Sequence record: NC_100371.1
Direction: 5' to 3' (one strand)
From: a phage
DNA: 64,000 nt
Part shown: positions 12,473 to 19,498 of the stretch, one piece after another
Numbering within the stretch: position 1 is the first letter of the stretch
How the letters are laid out: each line of letters starts with the position of its first letter
Made by a program: the position numbers and the translations under genes
The notes under the pieces: model-generated
What the model was told of the DNA's origin: nothing
What the model saw: only the letters and a program-made list of their open reading frames with translations
The model's database searches: none

Positions 12473-12814
12473 CTACTCAAGGTCTTCAGAGTCAAGCTCA
12501 AAAAGAATCAAACTGTGCATGCCTGCAGAGAGATCAACACACCCTGCAACAATAAGGGTTTGATAGTAAGGTTCAGCACCCTCAATATCTTCGTTAAAAT
12601 CCACAACAAGGTAGTCACCTTTGTTAAAGGTGTATTTGTCCGATGTAAACGCAAAACCTGCCCAGTCCCCTACTGCAGGATCTTTATCAGTCACCTTTGT
12701 TAGCAGTAGATCTTTTTCACGAGATCTTTTAGTAAAATCGTGAATCACAACATCCTTCTCTTCAGGAGTCGGATTGCCACACACGTAGTTAACGATATTT
12801 CTCCACAAACTCAT
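12473..12814 (-). CDS. hypothetical protein (113 aa)
   Basis: Co-oriented ORF; ATGA overlap with the upstream gene. Confidence 0.45.
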   Translation of the reverse strand: MSLWRNIVNYVCGNPTPEEKDVVIHDFTKRSREKDLLLTKVTDKDPAVGDWAGFAFTSDKYTFNKGDYLVVDFNEDIEGAEPYYQTLIVAGCVDLSAGMHSLILFELDSEDLE

Positions 12815-13458
12815 ACGTCCCCCTTTTCTGCTCTAGTTTCAAAATCTTTCCTGACTTTCTCGTCTAAACCAGGGAAAGTTGTATTATAAAACTCTACGAC
12901 TCTCGGGTCAACAATAATATCCACCTCTCTTAATGGACGCAACAAGTTTATTCCTTGTATCGTCTTAACCCGACTCAAGGCAACATACGTCATTCCGGGA
13001 GAGAAAGCTCCGTTCTTTCCGAGGTCTAGGTTGTAACAATCTAACGTAAGTCCTTGACTTTTATGCGATGTTACTGCGTACCCAGATTTCAAAGGAAGTT
13101 GCTCATAAGACCCGATCACAACCCTCTCTATGAACTTCTCCATCTTCCTTTCGGCAATATTGTACCTCTGGGAAGGTTTGTACTCGTTATTCTCCCACAA
13201 TCTCGGCTCAATTTCAACCTGTGTCCCGTCTTCCAGCTCAACCACCACAGACTTGGTCTTGAATTTTACCACTGTGGCTCGTGTCCCGTTGACATAGTAC
13301 GGAACTTTGTGTGTCGGGTCAACATCGTTTGAGGTTATCATAACCTTCATCCCTATCTTCAGCCTCATTTCCTGCTCCACAGGTAGTGTGGAAGGGAACT
13401 TACCTTTCATTTTACCAATGTAGGTCTTCTCTGGGGCCTTGATGGCATCATAGAAACG
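12811..13458 (-). pseudogene. Pif1/RecD/Dda-like SF1B helicase, C-terminal part (frame-shifted relative to the N-terminal part)
   Basis: Contains helicase motifs V/VI (VTSHKSQGLTLD, TYVALSRVKT). This frame is open upstream to 13458 and overlaps the end of the N-terminal ORF in a different frame. Confidence 0.7.
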
Positions 13459-14179
13459 TCATCACCTCCTCTGCTTGCTTATTGGTGGCACAGATGGTCA
13501 AGGCATCTGTTGGGACACCACCATGATAGCAACGAGTGTTAAGCTCTGCTACAACCTCTTTTATGCGACGACCTTCACGAACACAGTTCAACATTGTGGC
13601 GAAGCGAACAGATTCCTGACGGAACTGGTCTACTAATGCTATGTTGTGAAGATTAAGATCCTCCCAAGATTCTGTATAGCAACACAGATCTGTGTGGTAG
13701 AAGTTGAAGTAGGCTTCTTTCTCCATAGAAGAGACAACTGGAGGTGCTTGGTAGAAATCTCCAAACAATAACACCTGAATGCCTCCGAAAGGTTTGTCAT
13801 TTTTCCGAAGAAAGCGGAGTTTTCTATCCATCTCTATGAACTTGTCAGCACGGATCATAGAGATTTCATCGATAATCAGGATGGTAAATGCCTTGCTTTT
13901 CAGAGGCTTTGCTGTTTTTGCCCTTATTGCTGTCCAGTCTGACTCCATGCTCACACCTGCGGCAAGATCGAAAGTTCGGTGCGCTGTTGCTCCATTAACG
14001 TTTAAAGCGGCTACCCCTGTCGGGGCAACCGTTATGCAAGAGTCTCCATACATGGACTGGATCATGTTGATAAGATATGTCTTCCCGGTTCCACCAGGTC
14101 CACTTACGAAGACATTCTCACCGCTCATGATTGCAACAAGGGCAGCATCTGTGCCTACATCGTACTGCCCTTTTTCCAT
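13448..14179 (-). pseudogene. Pif1/RecD/Dda-like SF1B helicase, N-terminal part
   Basis: Walker A GPGGTGKT, motif II LIIDEISM, motif III LLFGDFYQAPPV; ends ...ATNKQAEEVMTFL and continues in another frame as the C-terminal part. Confidence 0.7.
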
Positions 14180-15420
14180 TACGCCTCCTCGTAGATAATG
14201 TCGATAGTATTACCGTCGCGGTCAACCACGTACTCAATTGGGTCGCCATCTTTGCGCGATTCTGGAGCTACTACGATTTCGTAGCGGCATGCACGGCACT
14301 TGGCGCTGTTGTGTTGGTAAGGTACACTAACTACATCAGCAGGGTCAACCATAACCGTCATCACAGTTCCGTAGCTCTTTGCATACTCTTTGCTGGCACA
14401 GTGCAGGCCATAAGAGCATGCAGCTTCCGGATCATCCTCTACAAAGTTACGAGGCATGGATACAAAAGCCCCCTGGTATTGTGGGACTTTACCACTGTGC
14501 CAATCCACCCACTTGTCGCCGTTAAACTGAACCCCTTTGTAGCAAATGATTCGACCATCTTCTGCAATCTGAATGTCGTTTGCCTGCATAAAATCGTAGA
14601 GCATGTTTACAGATTTTGCAGAAGGATTGCGTAGCAGGCGAACGAGGAATTTCACATAGCGGTCATCCAGTGTTCCGTCTGCATAATCTTTCTCAATTTT
14701 CTTTGCAATGGTGGATCGCATCTCTACACCGTAGTAGTAGAGCTTACCATCTTTCATGATCAGGTTGTCTGCAAGTGTGGTGAACTCATTCTTGCGTTCC
14801 AGCCAGACAAGGATTTCACCAATTGCCTCGTCATATTCCTGAACAGAGATATGGTCGAAGACTTTCTGGTAAACTTCCTCACTTTCACTGCGGCGAATTT
14901 CAAAAATACCTTCGTTGCAGGTGATCTGGAGGAGTTCCCCGCAAATAACCACCAAAGGCTCGATGCTTCGGGTCTGTTGCTGAGACACACTGCTCACCAC
15001 CTCCAGCACCGGGTCTTTGACTTCTACTAAAGGTTCTTCTGACTTGATTGCTACCCCAGTGAACCCTACACCGTGAACAACACACAGCGGATATACCACG
15101 CCCCAACGTTTAACGGAACCTTCGCCTAAGTCTAAGATCATGGCGTACTTACCGTTATCTTCCAGCCCATATCGAAATAAACGGGCCTCTTCACGGGTTT
15201 CAAAATCCTCACGGGTGTAGCAGACGCTGTCACGGTCAGGATCGAACAACTCTGGGGCACCTACTGCCAGTGTCCAGGTTGTGTTACCTTTCTCAATAGC
15301 GCATGTGAAACCCTTCTTCTCAAGCTCTGCACGGCGGTCACGTGCTTCTTTACGAGTTTTGAAATGTTCGTAGATGAAAATCATCTTGGTCTCCTTATTT
15401 GATGTTATTCTTTGTATCAA
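14179..15420 (-). CDS. hypothetical protein with two N-terminal ~45-aa repeats
   Basis: 413 aa; repeated F-x-TR-x-EAR-x(4)-LE-x(2)-G motif (IFIYEHFKTRKEARDRRAELEKKG / YTREDFETREEARLFRYGLEDNG). Overlaps the GHKL gene by 26 nt. Confidence 0.5.
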   Translation of the reverse strand: MIQRITSNKETKMIFIYEHFKTRKEARDRRAELEKKGFTCAIEKGNTTWTLAVGAPELFDPDRDSVCYTREDFETREEARLFRYGLEDNGKYAMILDLGEGSVKRWGVVYPLCVVHGVGFTGVAIKSEEPLVEVKDPVLEVVSSVSQQQTRSIEPLVVICGELLQITCNEGIFEIRRSESEEVYQKVFDHISVQEYDEAIGEILVWLERKNEFTTLADNLIMKDGKLYYYGVEMRSTIAKKIEKDYADGTLDDRYVKFLVRLLRNPSAKSVNMLYDFMQANDIQIAEDGRIICYKGVQFNGDKWVDWHSGKVPQYQGAFVSMPRNFVEDDPEAACSYGLHCASKEYAKSYGTVMTVMVDPADVVSVPYQHNSAKCRACRYEIVVAPESRKDGDPIEYVVDRDGNTIDIIYEEA

Positions 15421-17377
15421 TCAGTTCACGGTATTCAATCATAGCAGGAGTGTCCCAATATTTCAAGCCTACATGCTTCAAAAGTGGATATTTCTTTTCC
15501 AATCTTGCAATATAGGCCTTCCCGCACTTAACCCGGTTGGCGATTAAGATTTTGGCACGATGATTTAGCTCACCGTACTTCCACGTGGTGCTACCTTCCC
15601 ACTTGTGGAAATGTGGCCGATAACTTCCAAAATCCTGCATGGGGATAATTTTACCTAACTGTCTGTACAGGTTGTCATATGAAGTTTCATTTGCTGCGCG
15701 AGTTAGTAAGAATTTCCAAGCATCCTCTTTCAACAAATGTTCCACATTCTTCTCTGTAACATATTGGCAATCAGGATCAGTCCAAAGCAGACGAGATTCC
15801 GACACCAGGTACAGATCTTCCCCTTCAGGAATCTGGAGTGCCGCACGCACACGGTCATAATCTTGCTGGTAGATGTTGCTCATCTGCCCTAGCCAACAAC
15901 TTCCGCGTTGGATATCCCCCTCATACGGTATGCAGTGCTTAATCTTCCTGAACTCTGCCTTAGTAATACGCTCACGCCGGAAGTAACCATCCTTCTCAAG
16001 TTTTTTAACCCAATAGCCTGGTTCGTAACGGGTTTTGGTTTCACCTTTCTTCGTAGGTCGGCGTGGAAGCTCCGATAACAATTTGACCGTATCTGCAAAA
16101 AACGGATGGTGTGCCGCCTCTTTAAACTCTTTCACCAGATCCGTGTTACGGCAATAGAAAACGTTGCGTCCGGTAATCTCGCTTAAGTAGTTACACTTAT
16201 TCCGGTTATATTTGCCGTCTCCGTCGTTAAATACTAAATAAACTCCCCGTAAGAATTCTACCTTTCCGTAGCAGGCGTAACCTATGCGGCCTTTATTTAA
16301 GCCGCCAGCGAAGATCTCGCAGTCCCCCAAATTTCCTAGCCCTGTTTCTTCCCAGCGGTCATACATAAAATTCTTACCGAAGATGTGCCCGAACACTCCA
16401 CTGTTCTTCATCATCTCGCGTGCTTCTGAGGATGTTTTTGCTGTCTCCAGTTCTGCAACAACTTCTGCTCCACGAAGGCGAATGCCTTCTTTGACAAAAG
16501 CTTCCAAACGCTCTTGGAATCCACCATCGTCGTGACCTTCTATGGTCCATTCACGCCCTGGGTTAATATTGCAATCTCCGATAGGGATCTCTACACAAAT
16601 TGCAGGATAATCTATTAGTGTCTCCAGGAACTTAGAACGGTAAGGTTGGTGACCCATTACCACACGACTCTCGTCAGAGCTGGTATAACCCTTCAGGATG
16701 GTCATCTTCCAACCATCTTTTTCATAATAATACTGCGCCTCTACTTTGTCTCCCTCCAGCATCTTGCTCGTCATCGGGTCGGTGACAGTGAACGGAAATT
16801 TTGCATAGCGCAGGCATGATGCAATAGCGGTGCGATATTTCAGAACATGCTCTTTCTTAACATGAAACTGAACTTTTACCCCGTTGTGCTCTTCAGTCTT
16901 CCGCTCACGGATCTTGGTGACATTTGGGATACCCTGGTCCAAGAACAATAGGTATGTGCTTTCCACACCGTTGTGCACACTGATTACATCGAAAGTGTCC
17001 ACCATGCTGAACGGGGCCTTTGAACCAACACCTTTATTGCCTACCAGAGCGTTGCTGTTGCGCTTGGTCGACTCACCGAGGTTCATGAAAGTGTTACGGA
17101 CCATCTCTTCTGACATGCCTAATCCAACGTCCTGCACAAAGAAGTATGGTTCAAGGTCTGTAGGAGAGTGAATGATGATCGGAACATCACCCCGTCCAGA
17201 CTCAACATGGGAGTCCACAGCATTGAAGATCGGTTCACGGCAGCTTGCCAGTACCTTATCTTCATAAATCCCTTTGATGATTAGCCCAAAAGTCTCTTTG
17301 TTCAGAGAAATTGATCCCCTGGTTACCTCCATATTCCCAGTTAGCACCGCTTTAGTTTCATTGCTGTTTACAATCAT
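15395..17377 (-). CDS. GHKL-superfamily ATPase (Hsp90/MORC-like ATP-binding domain) with ~450-aa C-terminal region of unknown function
   Basis: 660 aa. N-terminal Bergerat-fold motifs: REPIFNAVDS (N box), DVGLGMSEEM (G1), GNKGVGSKAPF (G2). Confidence 0.65.
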   Translation of the reverse strand: MIVNSNETKAVLTGNMEVTRGSISLNKETFGLIIKGIYEDKVLASCREPIFNAVDSHVESGRGDVPIIIHSPTDLEPYFFVQDVGLGMSEEMVRNTFMNLGESTKRNSNALVGNKGVGSKAPFSMVDTFDVISVHNGVESTYLLFLDQGIPNVTKIRERKTEEHNGVKVQFHVKKEHVLKYRTAIASCLRYAKFPFTVTDPMTSKMLEGDKVEAQYYYEKDGWKMTILKGYTSSDESRVVMGHQPYRSKFLETLIDYPAICVEIPIGDCNINPGREWTIEGHDDGGFQERLEAFVKEGIRLRGAEVVAELETAKTSSEAREMMKNSGVFGHIFGKNFMYDRWEETGLGNLGDCEIFAGGLNKGRIGYACYGKVEFLRGVYLVFNDGDGKYNRNKCNYLSEITGRNVFYCRNTDLVKEFKEAAHHPFFADTVKLLSELPRRPTKKGETKTRYEPGYWVKKLEKDGYFRRERITKAEFRKIKHCIPYEGDIQRGSCWLGQMSNIYQQDYDRVRAALQIPEGEDLYLVSESRLLWTDPDCQYVTEKNVEHLLKEDAWKFLLTRAANETSYDNLYRQLGKIIPMQDFGSYRPHFHKWEGSTTWKYGELNHRAKILIANRVKCGKAYIARLEKKYPLLKHVGLKYWDTPAMIEYRELIDTKNNIK

Positions 17378-17874
17378 TTATTGCGCTCCTTGTAGTAGAT
17401 ATGACTCCCGAATTGAGCTGTCCTCTGCATCTTTTTTGCCCATTTCGGTCGTACTTTTGTTGTATGGTAGTGTGTTGCTCCACCTGTTATATCCATAGCC
17501 ATGTATGCAACATGGTTGTTATTATAAACCTTTAGAAGCATCTTTGCAAGACTTTTAGCGTGATCCCATGAATCTTTTTCTGTCACCTTAAAAGTTTTGC
17601 CGTGGTTTGTCCACGAAAACTGGTTAGGTTGGTAGACAATCTTTCTTATAGTGTCTGGGTATTTGGGGTGAGATTTCCTGTTTAGTGTGGCAAATCCGGA
17701 TGCCAGCATCCCCATCGTGCCATCCCCTCTAGCCTCCCTGTAGATATTGCATGCTAGAATGTTTTCCTTAGTATCCGACGGCTTGCAAGTGTGATATACT
17801 TTTTGTTTTGGTGCTGCAACAACAGGCAGCGATAAAAATGCGCTCAAAATAATAGCAAAGATTTTAATTTTCAC
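17374..17874 (-). CDS. secreted SleB/CwlJ-family cell-wall hydrolase (candidate signal-peptide endolysin)
   Basis: 166 aa, GTG start with GGAG RBS. N-terminal signal-peptide-like MKIKIFAIILSAFLSLPVVAAP; SleB/CwlJ signature ACNIYREARGDG ... LNR ... QPNQFSW. Confidence 0.75.
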   Translation of the reverse strand: MKIKIFAIILSAFLSLPVVAAPKQKVYHTCKPSDTKENILACNIYREARGDGTMGMLASGFATLNRKSHPKYPDTIRKIVYQPNQFSWTNHGKTFKVTEKDSWDHAKSLAKMLLKVYNNNHVAYMAMDITGGATHYHTTKVRPKWAKKMQRTAQFGSHIYYKERNK

Positions 17875-17894: not shown

Positions 17895-17910
17895 CCCCGC
17901 CGAAGCGGGG
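17895..17910 (-). terminator. intrinsic terminator (UUCG-loop hairpin)
   Basis: Minus-strand RNA CCCCGC-UUCG-GCGGGG followed by AUUUUCUAUUU; same 16-mer as at 44316-44331. Confidence 0.55.
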
Positions 17911-18313: not shown

Positions 18314-19498
18314 TCAAGCTTTAGCTAAAATGGCGCTAAACTCTTCACCAAACTCTTTTACAATCTTCATCAGGTTTGGGTATGCTTTGATCAGCTGAGC
18401 AACGATCTTGTCCCTGCCTTTACCAATAAGTAAGGCATTTCCTAAGGCGTTAGGTTTCATCATCGCCATAAAGACTGAGAATACAAAGTCTCGGTTCTCA
18501 TCCTTGAAATTTTCCCAAAGGAAATCAAGGAAGTTTGCCACACAGCTGACGAGATCTTCGTCGGAGATACTTGCATTTTCCATCATATTACGAATAGCGA
18601 TACAACCTTCAGACCCCAGAATCCACAAGATGTCTGGCTGCTTAGGACCTACATATTCTTTGCAGCCTCCTGCCATAATCCGACCGATTTCTGGCAAGTT
18701 TCGTTTCTTGGTGTGGTAGGTCCAAATTTCTACCGCTGCAGTGTGACCAATTGCACCTTGTAGAAGGACACGGGCCATAGCGTCAGAAATAATACCGCTG
18801 TCAAAATCGTGCAGGATGTCAGATGCAGCAACCCAAGATCGCGGTGTAGCAAAAGATGGACAATTAATCTCAGCCATGGCCTCATAATTATCGATGGCTG
18901 ATGGGACTCTTTTCAGATATCCAATTACCGAGGAGTGCACCCCATTAAGGAATGCATAGTCCTCAATAAACACCTCTGCACTGCTTGTAACTTCTACAAT
19001 GATAAAGCGGTTAGCTAGAGGAGCTTCGAGCGCCGAAAGAACAGCACCGTCTGTAGCACGGTTACCTGCAGCTACAAAAACAGAGCCCTTAGGAAATGCA
19101 TAGGTGCCGCACTTGTGGTCGAGCATAATTTGCATTGCAACCTTCTGCAGGTAGTTATCTGCATGAGTAAGCTCATCTAGAAAGATAATTCCGCTCCAGT
19201 CCGGATCTGCAGGCCAAAATTCTGGAATTGCAAACACTGTGCGTGTAGTCCCATCCGACTCTACAGGGATAGGTAGCCCAGATAAGTCAGCAGGATCTTT
19301 ATCTGACAACCGCACGTCAACCAGGTTGTCATCTCGCTCACCGAACATATTATCAGCAATCTGCTTCATCACCTGGCTCTTCCCCACGCCCATCGGTCCT
19401 AAAATCAGGACAGATCGGTTATGACGCTGGGCAAATTGAATAATAGCTGGCAACTCGCGGACAGTGATTTGACCACTTTCGAATACGTTTCTTGACAT
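18314..19498 (-). CDS. MoxR-family AAA+ ATPase (AAA_5; CobS/RavA-like)
   Basis: 394 aa. Walker A ILGPMGVGKS, Walker B IIFLDELTHA, sensor/arginine region AAGNRATDG ... ANRF typical of MoxR/CobS AAA+ proteins. Confidence 0.8.
   Translation of the reverse strand: MSRNVFESGQITVRELPAIIQFAQRHNRSVLILGPMGVGKSQVMKQIADNMFGERDDNLVDVRLSDKDPADLSGLPIPVESDGTTRTVFAIPEFWPADPDWSGIIFLDELTHADNYLQKVAMQIMLDHKCGTYAFPKGSVFVAAGNRATDGAVLSALEAPLANRFIIVEVTSSAEVFIEDYAFLNGVHSSVIGYLKRVPSAIDNYEAMAEINCPSFATPRSWVAASDILHDFDSGIISDAMARVLLQGAIGHTAAVEIWTYHTKKRNLPEIGRIMAGGCKEYVGPKQPDILWILGSEGCIAIRNMMENASISDEDLVSCVANFLDFLWENFKDENRDFVFSVFMAMMKPNALGNALLIGKGRDKIVAQLIKAYPNLMKIVKEFGEEFSAILAKA

Follow-up and report, generated by a model that had tools for sequence, protein, structure and literature searches.

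The rII locus of phage T4 (Benzer's rII locus) consists of two genes, rIIA and then rIIB, which lie on one strand with few bases between them. The interaction of Rex and rII was first described nearly seven decades ago (PMC11879866), and a comparative-genomics review of T4 states that the precise functions of the rII genes are not known (PMC2993671). In a CRISPRi-ART study, RIIA or RIIB was knocked down in phages T4, MM02, EdH4, SUSP1, and N4; the knock-downs had no effect on Escherichia coli lacking Rex and lowered plating on E. coli that expresses lambda RexAB, and the authors concluded that Rex suppression is common to rII systems that share <40% sequence identity (PMC11879866). Transposon sequencing of T4 revealed the same conditional essentiality of rII (bioRxiv 10.1101/2025.11.20.689424). 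At the protein level, rIIA orthologs have been described as an N-terminal GHKL domain followed by a variable C-terminal domain (Iyer et al. 2021, PMC7824862). Here, we analyzed a 64,000-nucleotide stretch of phage DNA (sequence record NC_100371.1; hereafter, the window), in which a preliminary description had pointed to an Hsp90/MORC-like GHKL ATPase gene at positions 15395..17377. We are confident that this gene is rIIA, that the gene adjoining it downstream is rIIB, and that the pair has a counter-defense role of the Rex type. The locus as such is already known; i.e., it is labeled in deposited genomes, its GHKL architecture has been published, and near-identical orthologs have been tested.

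The gene at 15395..17377 (minus strand) is a real open reading frame (ORF), which starts with ATG, has an AGGAG sequence 8 nucleotides (nt) 5' of this start, and encodes a protein of 660 amino acids (75.9 kDa; isoelectric point, 8.2). Its identification is based on the ORF and on a match to phrog_612 ("RIIA lysis inhibitor") in a PHROGs profile search, in which residues 1 to 658 were aligned with positions 1 to 724 of the 725 profile positions (E = 2.1e-123). T4 RIIA scores E = 9e-250 against phrog_612 and hence belongs to the same PHROG. The pairwise similarity of the two proteins is confined to their N-terminal parts and ends around residues 190 to 310: BLASTP aligned residues 1 to 190 (28% identity; E = 4e-21), and hhalign aligned a profile of the window RIIA family with T4 RIIA over residues 1 to 312 (99.96% probability). 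The latter comparison used the single T4 sequence; a T4-type profile was not built, as the homolog search listed only sequences 98 to 100% identical to T4. T4 RIIA is longer (725 amino acids) and is built alike, with the GHKL domain followed by a second domain and an extended C-terminal region, all collinear with the family profile, and all of its ATP-site residues are common to the window protein. Besides the similarity to T4 RIIA, the window protein has the Pfam HATPase_c_3 domain, the full-length match to phrog_612, and the rIIB neighbor of this family.

The DNA of the rII pair is 99.7% identical to that of Vequintavirinae sp. EcoIv14a_Aya and 99.6% identical to those of Escherichia phages S127 BCL3 and B9-1. 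In total, 119 phage records have at least 90% DNA identity to the rII region, and many of them label the genes rIIA and rIIB. Because the DNA is nearly identical to annotated Vequintavirus genomes, the source phage is, judged by its sequence, an rV5-like E. coli myovirus of the genus Vequintavirus that carries an rII locus. For phage EdH4 (Vequintavirus murica; MK327930), gapless alignments with the window show 97% identity for both rII proteins (22 substitutions relative to gp63 for RIIA and 12 relative to gp62 for RIIB), and the pair is flanked by the same genes. The protein had been regarded as unrecognized in the preliminary description; the full-length phrog_612 match, the homology to T4, and the 97% identity to EdH4 identify it as RIIA.

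Several side observations concern the rIIA gene and its public records. The gene contains homopolymer runs, i.e., A6 at 16006, T6 at 16102, and G5 at 16328 and 15920; a recent preprint describes an A6 run in T4 rIIA as a reversible frameshift "contingency locus." Among the database matches to the rII region at a DNA identity of at least 90% are 16 records with the name "Campylobacter phage," of which 15 give Campylobacter jejuni as the host. The presence of an E. coli Vequintavirus rII region in records of so distant a host suggests that they are mislabeled or contaminated. In the Klebsiella phage vB_KM5a1-KLB27 (L006, 4926..7187), two adjoining genes are both labeled "rIIB protein"; the first of them (753 amino acids) matches the N terminus of the window RIIA at 34.5% identity and, by this similarity, is a mislabeled rIIA, so that the public annotation is in error. 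A Slopekvirus gene that is labeled rIIB and matches RIIA was considered as a possible fusion and rejected, being an rIIA gene with a wrong label.

The second gene of the pair, rIIB (14179..15384; minus strand), encodes 401 amino acids from the ATG at 15384, and its longest ORF (413 amino acids) starts at a TTG at 15420. Residues 144 to 385 match phrog_609 ("RIIB lysis inhibitor"; E = 1.5e-61), against which T4 RIIB scores E = 6.6e-111. The window and T4 proteins are 37% identical over 204 amino acids in their cores (E = 4e-39), and cluster P0032, which is 99% identical to the window RIIB, carries a precomputed PF26926 (Phage_T4_rIIB) assignment. The conserved core (14215..14955; minus strand; residues 144 to 390) contains the motifs NPSxK, MLYDF, MPRNxVEDxP, CSxGLH, VDPADVVSVPY, and KCRxCRY. 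It is preceded by an N-terminal part (15079..15384; minus strand) composed of two tandem beta-alpha-beta-beta (SPOR-like) modules at residues 1 to 42 and 54 to 102. These modules account for the internal repeat that had been noticed earlier in this ORF: residues 6 to 26 and 59 to 79 align with a score of 44, which was reached by none of 2,000 shuffled sequences (20.1 +/- 4.0). A structural model of RIIB (mean predicted local distance difference test [pLDDT] score, 72) comprises the two N-terminal modules, a disordered linker (residues 101 to 141), and the core; neither the single sequence nor a profile retrieved a solved relative of the protein from the PDB.

The N-terminal part of RIIB varies by lineage, given that the lengths of the RIIB ORFs range from 194 to 547 amino acids across 73 viral loci. 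T4 RIIB (312 amino acids) lacks the two SPOR-like repeats, and its N terminus matches a "DNA binding domain" PHROG (phrog_867; E = 4e-5). In the core, residues C323, H328, C363, and C366 are invariant in the homologs from rV5-like and Klebsiella phages and have the look of a metal site (C-x4-H ... C-x2-C), whereas T4 has Met at the position of C363; a zinc site is thus not claimed for the family as a whole. No signal peptide is evident by eye in the RIIB sequence, to which no predictor was applied. A further predicted protein, P0036 (498 amino acids; L087, 481..1977), combines a TPR-repeat N terminus with the C-terminal 55% of the window RIIB at 100% identity. It comes from a single 3.3-kb metagenome scaffold of one sample and represents either a chimeric assembly or a genuine swap of the N-terminal domain.

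The arrangement of the two genes differs from that first proposed. The 413-amino-acid gene had been placed upstream of the GHKL gene with a 26-nt overlap; because the pair is encoded on the minus strand, it actually lies downstream, and the overlap depends on a start at the TTG at 15420, which is the choice of the longest-ORF rule. At the junction (15385..15397; minus strand), the TAA stop codon of rIIA (15397..15395) overlaps (TAAGGAGACCAAGATG) an AAGGAG Shine-Dalgarno sequence (15396..15391) that is separated by 6 nt from the rIIB ATG at 15384, 12 codons past the TTG. This start yields the 401-amino-acid RIIB and an intergenic gap of 10 nt, and it is so annotated in phages SYGMH1, EdH4, and S127 BCL3. 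Judged from this arrangement, a close coupling of rIIA and rIIB through a ribosome-binding site that overlaps the stop codon, rather than through overlapping reading frames, is plausible.

To characterize the linkage of the two genes and the conservation of their products, we used 80 viral loci (IMG/VR) that encode RIIA relatives. In 73 of these, an ORF with a RIIB core, as detected with a hidden Markov model (HMM) of that core, lies directly downstream of rIIA on the same strand, so that the proposal of a two-gene unit is borne out by co-occurrence. Six of the seven loci without a RIIB match are cut by the end of the contig. The seventh (L019; IMGVR_UViG_3300002026_002465, a 177,948-bp contig) has room for the gene and is the sole locus of the 80 with ample downstream sequence and no detected RIIB core ORF. 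In phage RB43 (UniProt Q56C47), RIIA and RIIB are joined in a single protein of 1,049 amino acids (Foldseek against BFVD; E = 8e-29). This protein has the same RIIA fold; in the window, by contrast, a stop codon and a ribosome-binding site separate the two genes. The RB43 fusion explains why phrog_609, with its 1,055 positions, matches RIIA at its N terminus and RIIB at its C terminus. No RIIB core was found in the RIIA homologs P0001 to P0031 or P0152 to P0164, and the RB43 entry in BFVD is the only evidence of a fusion. Conserved adjacency and a natural fusion are standard evidence of joint function and, at the level of sequence, suggest that RIIA and RIIB work together.

The N-terminal half of RIIA is predicted to be an ATPase module. 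The Bergerat-fold (GHKL) ATP-binding domain (16823..17305; minus strand; residues ~25 to 185) contains the three motifs quoted in the preliminary description, i.e., REPIFNAVDS at residues 47 to 56, DVGLGMSEEM at 83 to 92, and GNKGVGSKAPF at 113 to 123. They correspond to motif I (E48/N52/D55), motif II (D83-G85-G87), and the lid motif (G113-G116-G118). An HMM search with Pfam HATPase_c_3 matched residues 50 to 147 (E = 1.8e-8; 34.9 bits versus a cutoff of 25 bits), and the predicted structure showed a two-domain GHL fold, both in agreement with the Bergerat-fold call. The second domain (16508..16810; minus strand; residues ~190 to 290) is transducer-like (middle-domain-like). We compared 76 distinct N-terminal sequences, including that of T4, with a median identity of 27% to the window RIIA. 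In the ATP-binding domain, E48, N52, D55, D83, G85, G113, G116, G118, S119, and K120 are invariant in all 76, as are Y246, G267, R275, and E276 in the second domain. The invariance of these residues at such a low median identity indicates very strong selection on those for ATP binding and hydrolysis, and from the ATP-site residues we infer that RIIA is an active ATPase.

An AlphaFold2 model of RIIA based on 22 homologs (mean pLDDT, 82; predicted template-modeling score, 0.55) was compared with solved proteins. The highest comparison figures were obtained for TRAP1 (17.8; 304 aligned residues), GRP94 (16.1; 296 residues), and MORC2 (15.8; 260 residues); the earlier label "Hsp90/MORC-like" is apt. 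These were followed by the T6 topoisomerase II ATPase domain (15.7; 254 residues), the 43-kDa ParE fragment (14.8; 255 residues), and the MutL N-terminal domain (14.6; 253 residues), and histidine kinases reached 8.2 or less. The aligned length was 250 to 304 residues for two-domain constructs versus 135 to 161 residues for chains with only the Hsp90 N domain (11.4 to 14.4). Because the two-domain constructs align over a greater length, some 100 to 140 residues past the Bergerat domain superpose on the transducer or middle domain. RIIA is thus predicted, from this model, to carry a complete two-domain ATPase module of the GyrB/Hsp90/MutL/MORC class. Residues 1 to 25 were modeled with low confidence; an exchangeable N-terminal strap would look so, and this alone shows nothing.

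The remainder of the protein is a RIIA-specific C-terminal region (15398..16480; minus strand; residues ~300 to 660), which consists of alpha/beta segments followed by a helical bundle (residues 543 to 659) and was modeled with pLDDT values mostly of 85 to 94. The C-terminal ~450 amino acids had been reported to match nothing recognizable; residues 301 to 660 alone do match phrog_612 (positions 402 to 724; E = 2.4e-19). A phmmer search with residues 201 to 660 against 1.84 billion cluster representatives detected 15 proteins, all of RIIA size or fragments, and by this measure the region is strongly lineage specific at the single-sequence level. The top Foldseek matches of the model among predicted viral structures were all RIIA proteins (KVP40, 44RR2.8t, Marfa, and others). 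Alignments with the models from KVP40 and 44RR2.8t spanned 730 to 800 columns; therefore, the entire RIIA chain corresponds, including the C-terminal region.

Taken with the published phenotypes, these features lead to the following reading. The rII pair would be dispensable on naive hosts and needed on cells with a RexAB-type abortive-infection system (e.g., that of prophage lambda). RIIA would bind and hydrolyze ATP and would probably cycle through ATP-driven N-terminal dimerization (i.e., as a clamp), by analogy to Hsp90, MutL, and MORC. The invariant R275/E276 pair of the second domain is a candidate gamma-phosphate sensor and may serve as such in this cycle. RIIA would act in a complex with RIIB, and this complex would keep RexA/RexB, and probably other prophage systems too, from being triggered or from depolarizing the membrane. 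In the published sources found, no biochemical mechanism was given for rII, nor for the way in which a RIIA-RIIB complex blocks Rex. The specific clamp mechanism is put forward as a tentative proposal. Likewise, it is possible, with the odds leaning against it, that the RIIA clamp and RIIB sequester or remodel the trigger or effector of Rex-like systems and that the RIIB N terminus sets which host or prophage component is engaged.

Several points weigh against this reading. The ATPase activity and dimerization of RIIA and its contact with RIIB are inferred from sequence and structure prediction, and the Rex phenotype comes from EdH4, not from the phage of the window (PMC11879866). The BASEL study suggests that immunity may not be the primary role of RexAB, and in this lineage rII may thus have a different natural target. 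The C-terminal homology to T4 RIIA is present at the level of the PHROG profile and the fold only, being absent from pairwise BLAST and from the thin profile of the window RIIA family. There is no convincing transmembrane helix, with a maximum 19-residue hydropathy of 0.93 in RIIA and 1.69 in RIIB. The T4 rII proteins are described as associated with the inner membrane; from the hydropathy values, any membrane association of RIIA would have to be peripheral or via a partner. A comparison of the rII proteins with the defense systems of PADLOC yielded marginal matches only (E > 0.004). RIIB can also be a liability to a phage, since it triggers the CARD-gasdermin defense: T6 escapes this system through the loss of rIIB, and RIIB expression alone activates it (PMC10312443).

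The PHROGs database files both phrog_612 and phrog_609 under "lysis," T4 rII mutants were first isolated as rapid-lysis mutants (as recounted in the contingency-locus preprint), and the gene directly upstream of rIIA encodes a SleB-like cell wall hydrolase that some records label as an endolysin. The pair could accordingly be a lysis-timing (lysis inhibition) factor that chiefly delays lysis under superinfection. We consider this unlikely to be its main job: the "lysis inhibitor" label is historical, neither protein has a transmembrane helix or features of a holin, antiholin, or spanin, and the phenotype in five phages, including EdH4, is sensitivity to Rex with no defect in its absence. Lysis inhibition as a secondary phenotype of the pair is possible.

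The resemblance to Hsp90 extends to sequence, in that the solved proteins nearest to RIIA by sequence profile are Hsp90-family N-terminal domains (E, ~3e-9), and the PDB, when searched with the single sequence and with a profile, yielded no solved RIIA and gave matches to Hsp90-type N-terminal domains only. If RIIA were a phage chaperone of this type, it would fold or remodel client proteins, with protection from Rex as a side effect. We regard this as quite improbable. RIIA scored 17.9 bits against the NCBIfam HSP90 equivalog model, far from the cutoff of 455 bits, and had no match to Pfam HSP90; it is thus not Hsp90 proper. In contrast to the Hsp90 family (TRAP1, GRP94, and HtpG), it has no detectable C-terminal dimerization domain, its C-terminal 360 residues being RIIA specific. 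None of the Hsp90 cochaperones corresponds to its obligatory rIIB partner, and no client protein is known. The same two features, i.e., the RIIA-specific C-terminal region and the obligatory RIIB partner, set RIIA apart from the enzymes of the GHL clade in general.

The preliminary description had also assigned the gene to a replication module. This term only describes the neighborhood, in which genes for a Dda/Pif1-like helicase, for a methylase, and for a primase-helicase are found, and does not in itself point to a replication role. As stated in that description, RIIA lacks the partner domains of the DNA-acting members of its class and of histidine kinases: no TOPRIM or MutL C-terminal domain was detected with Pfam and NCBIfam (E <= 0.1), and a Pfam scan detected no histidine kinase dimerization domain and no CW or other DNA-enzyme domain. 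RIIA thus differs from topoisomerase II (TOPRIM), MutL (endonuclease or dimerization domain), and MORC (CW or coiled-coil domain). A new GHKL ATPase that acts on DNA in the manner of a MutL-, MORC-, or topoisomerase-type clamp is therefore a highly improbable identity for the protein and, as a claim of novelty, is largely refuted by these absences, by the full-length match to a RIIA profile that contains T4 RIIA, by the rIIB gene that follows in nearly every locus, and by the CRISPRi-ART knock-downs (including that in EdH4), whose harmlessness on hosts lacking Rex argues against a core replication role.

The genes flanking the rII pair are on the same strand. The cell wall hydrolase upstream (17374..17874; minus strand) is of the SleB/CwlJ type (Pfam Hydrolase_2; E = 2e-19) and has a hydrophobic N terminus, and its TGA stop codon overlaps the rIIA start codon as ATGA. 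A gene for a MoxR-like AAA ATPase (18314..19498; minus strand; phrog_1297; E = 2e-110) is located another two genes upstream. The three relatives whose gene tables were read (SYGMH1, EdH4, and S127 BCL3) all have the order hydrolase, rIIA, rIIB, and helicase in their annotation. Upstream of the hydrolase gene, a consensus scan, which is not evidence of function, revealed a G+C-rich hairpin with a T-rich tail (17895..17910; minus strand), and the EdH4 record annotates a terminator at the equivalent place. This hairpin, by its sequence and position, probably ends the preceding transcription unit; the unit would therefore read hydrolase-rIIA-rIIB-helicase. The number of sigma-70-like sites (16, versus 12.6 +/- 3.2 after shuffling) is not in excess, and no promoter is claimed.

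The Dda/Pif1-like helicase gene downstream of rIIB (12811..14179; minus strand) is split near 13462 into ORFs of 243 and 199 amino acids by a 2-nt deletion relative to an intact gene of 456 amino acids. The gene is intact in EdH4, SYGMH1, S127 BCL3 (99.6% identity), and a 98% IMG/VR relative (L011), and the frameshift was found in no relative checked. It is either real or a sequencing error.

For genome annotation, little is gained, as many deposited Vequintavirus genomes already label the pair rIIA/rIIB and tests against RexAB have been published for near-identical genes. What is added here is the prediction of a complete two-domain module of the Hsp90/MORC/MutL class, beyond the ATP-binding domain; the invariance of the catalytic residues and of the Arg-Glu pair of the second domain across very divergent phages; and a RIIB core for which no structural relative has been solved. 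They are refinements of a known system rather than a discovery. If true, the clamp mechanism would explain in concrete biochemical terms how the long-studied rII locus works.

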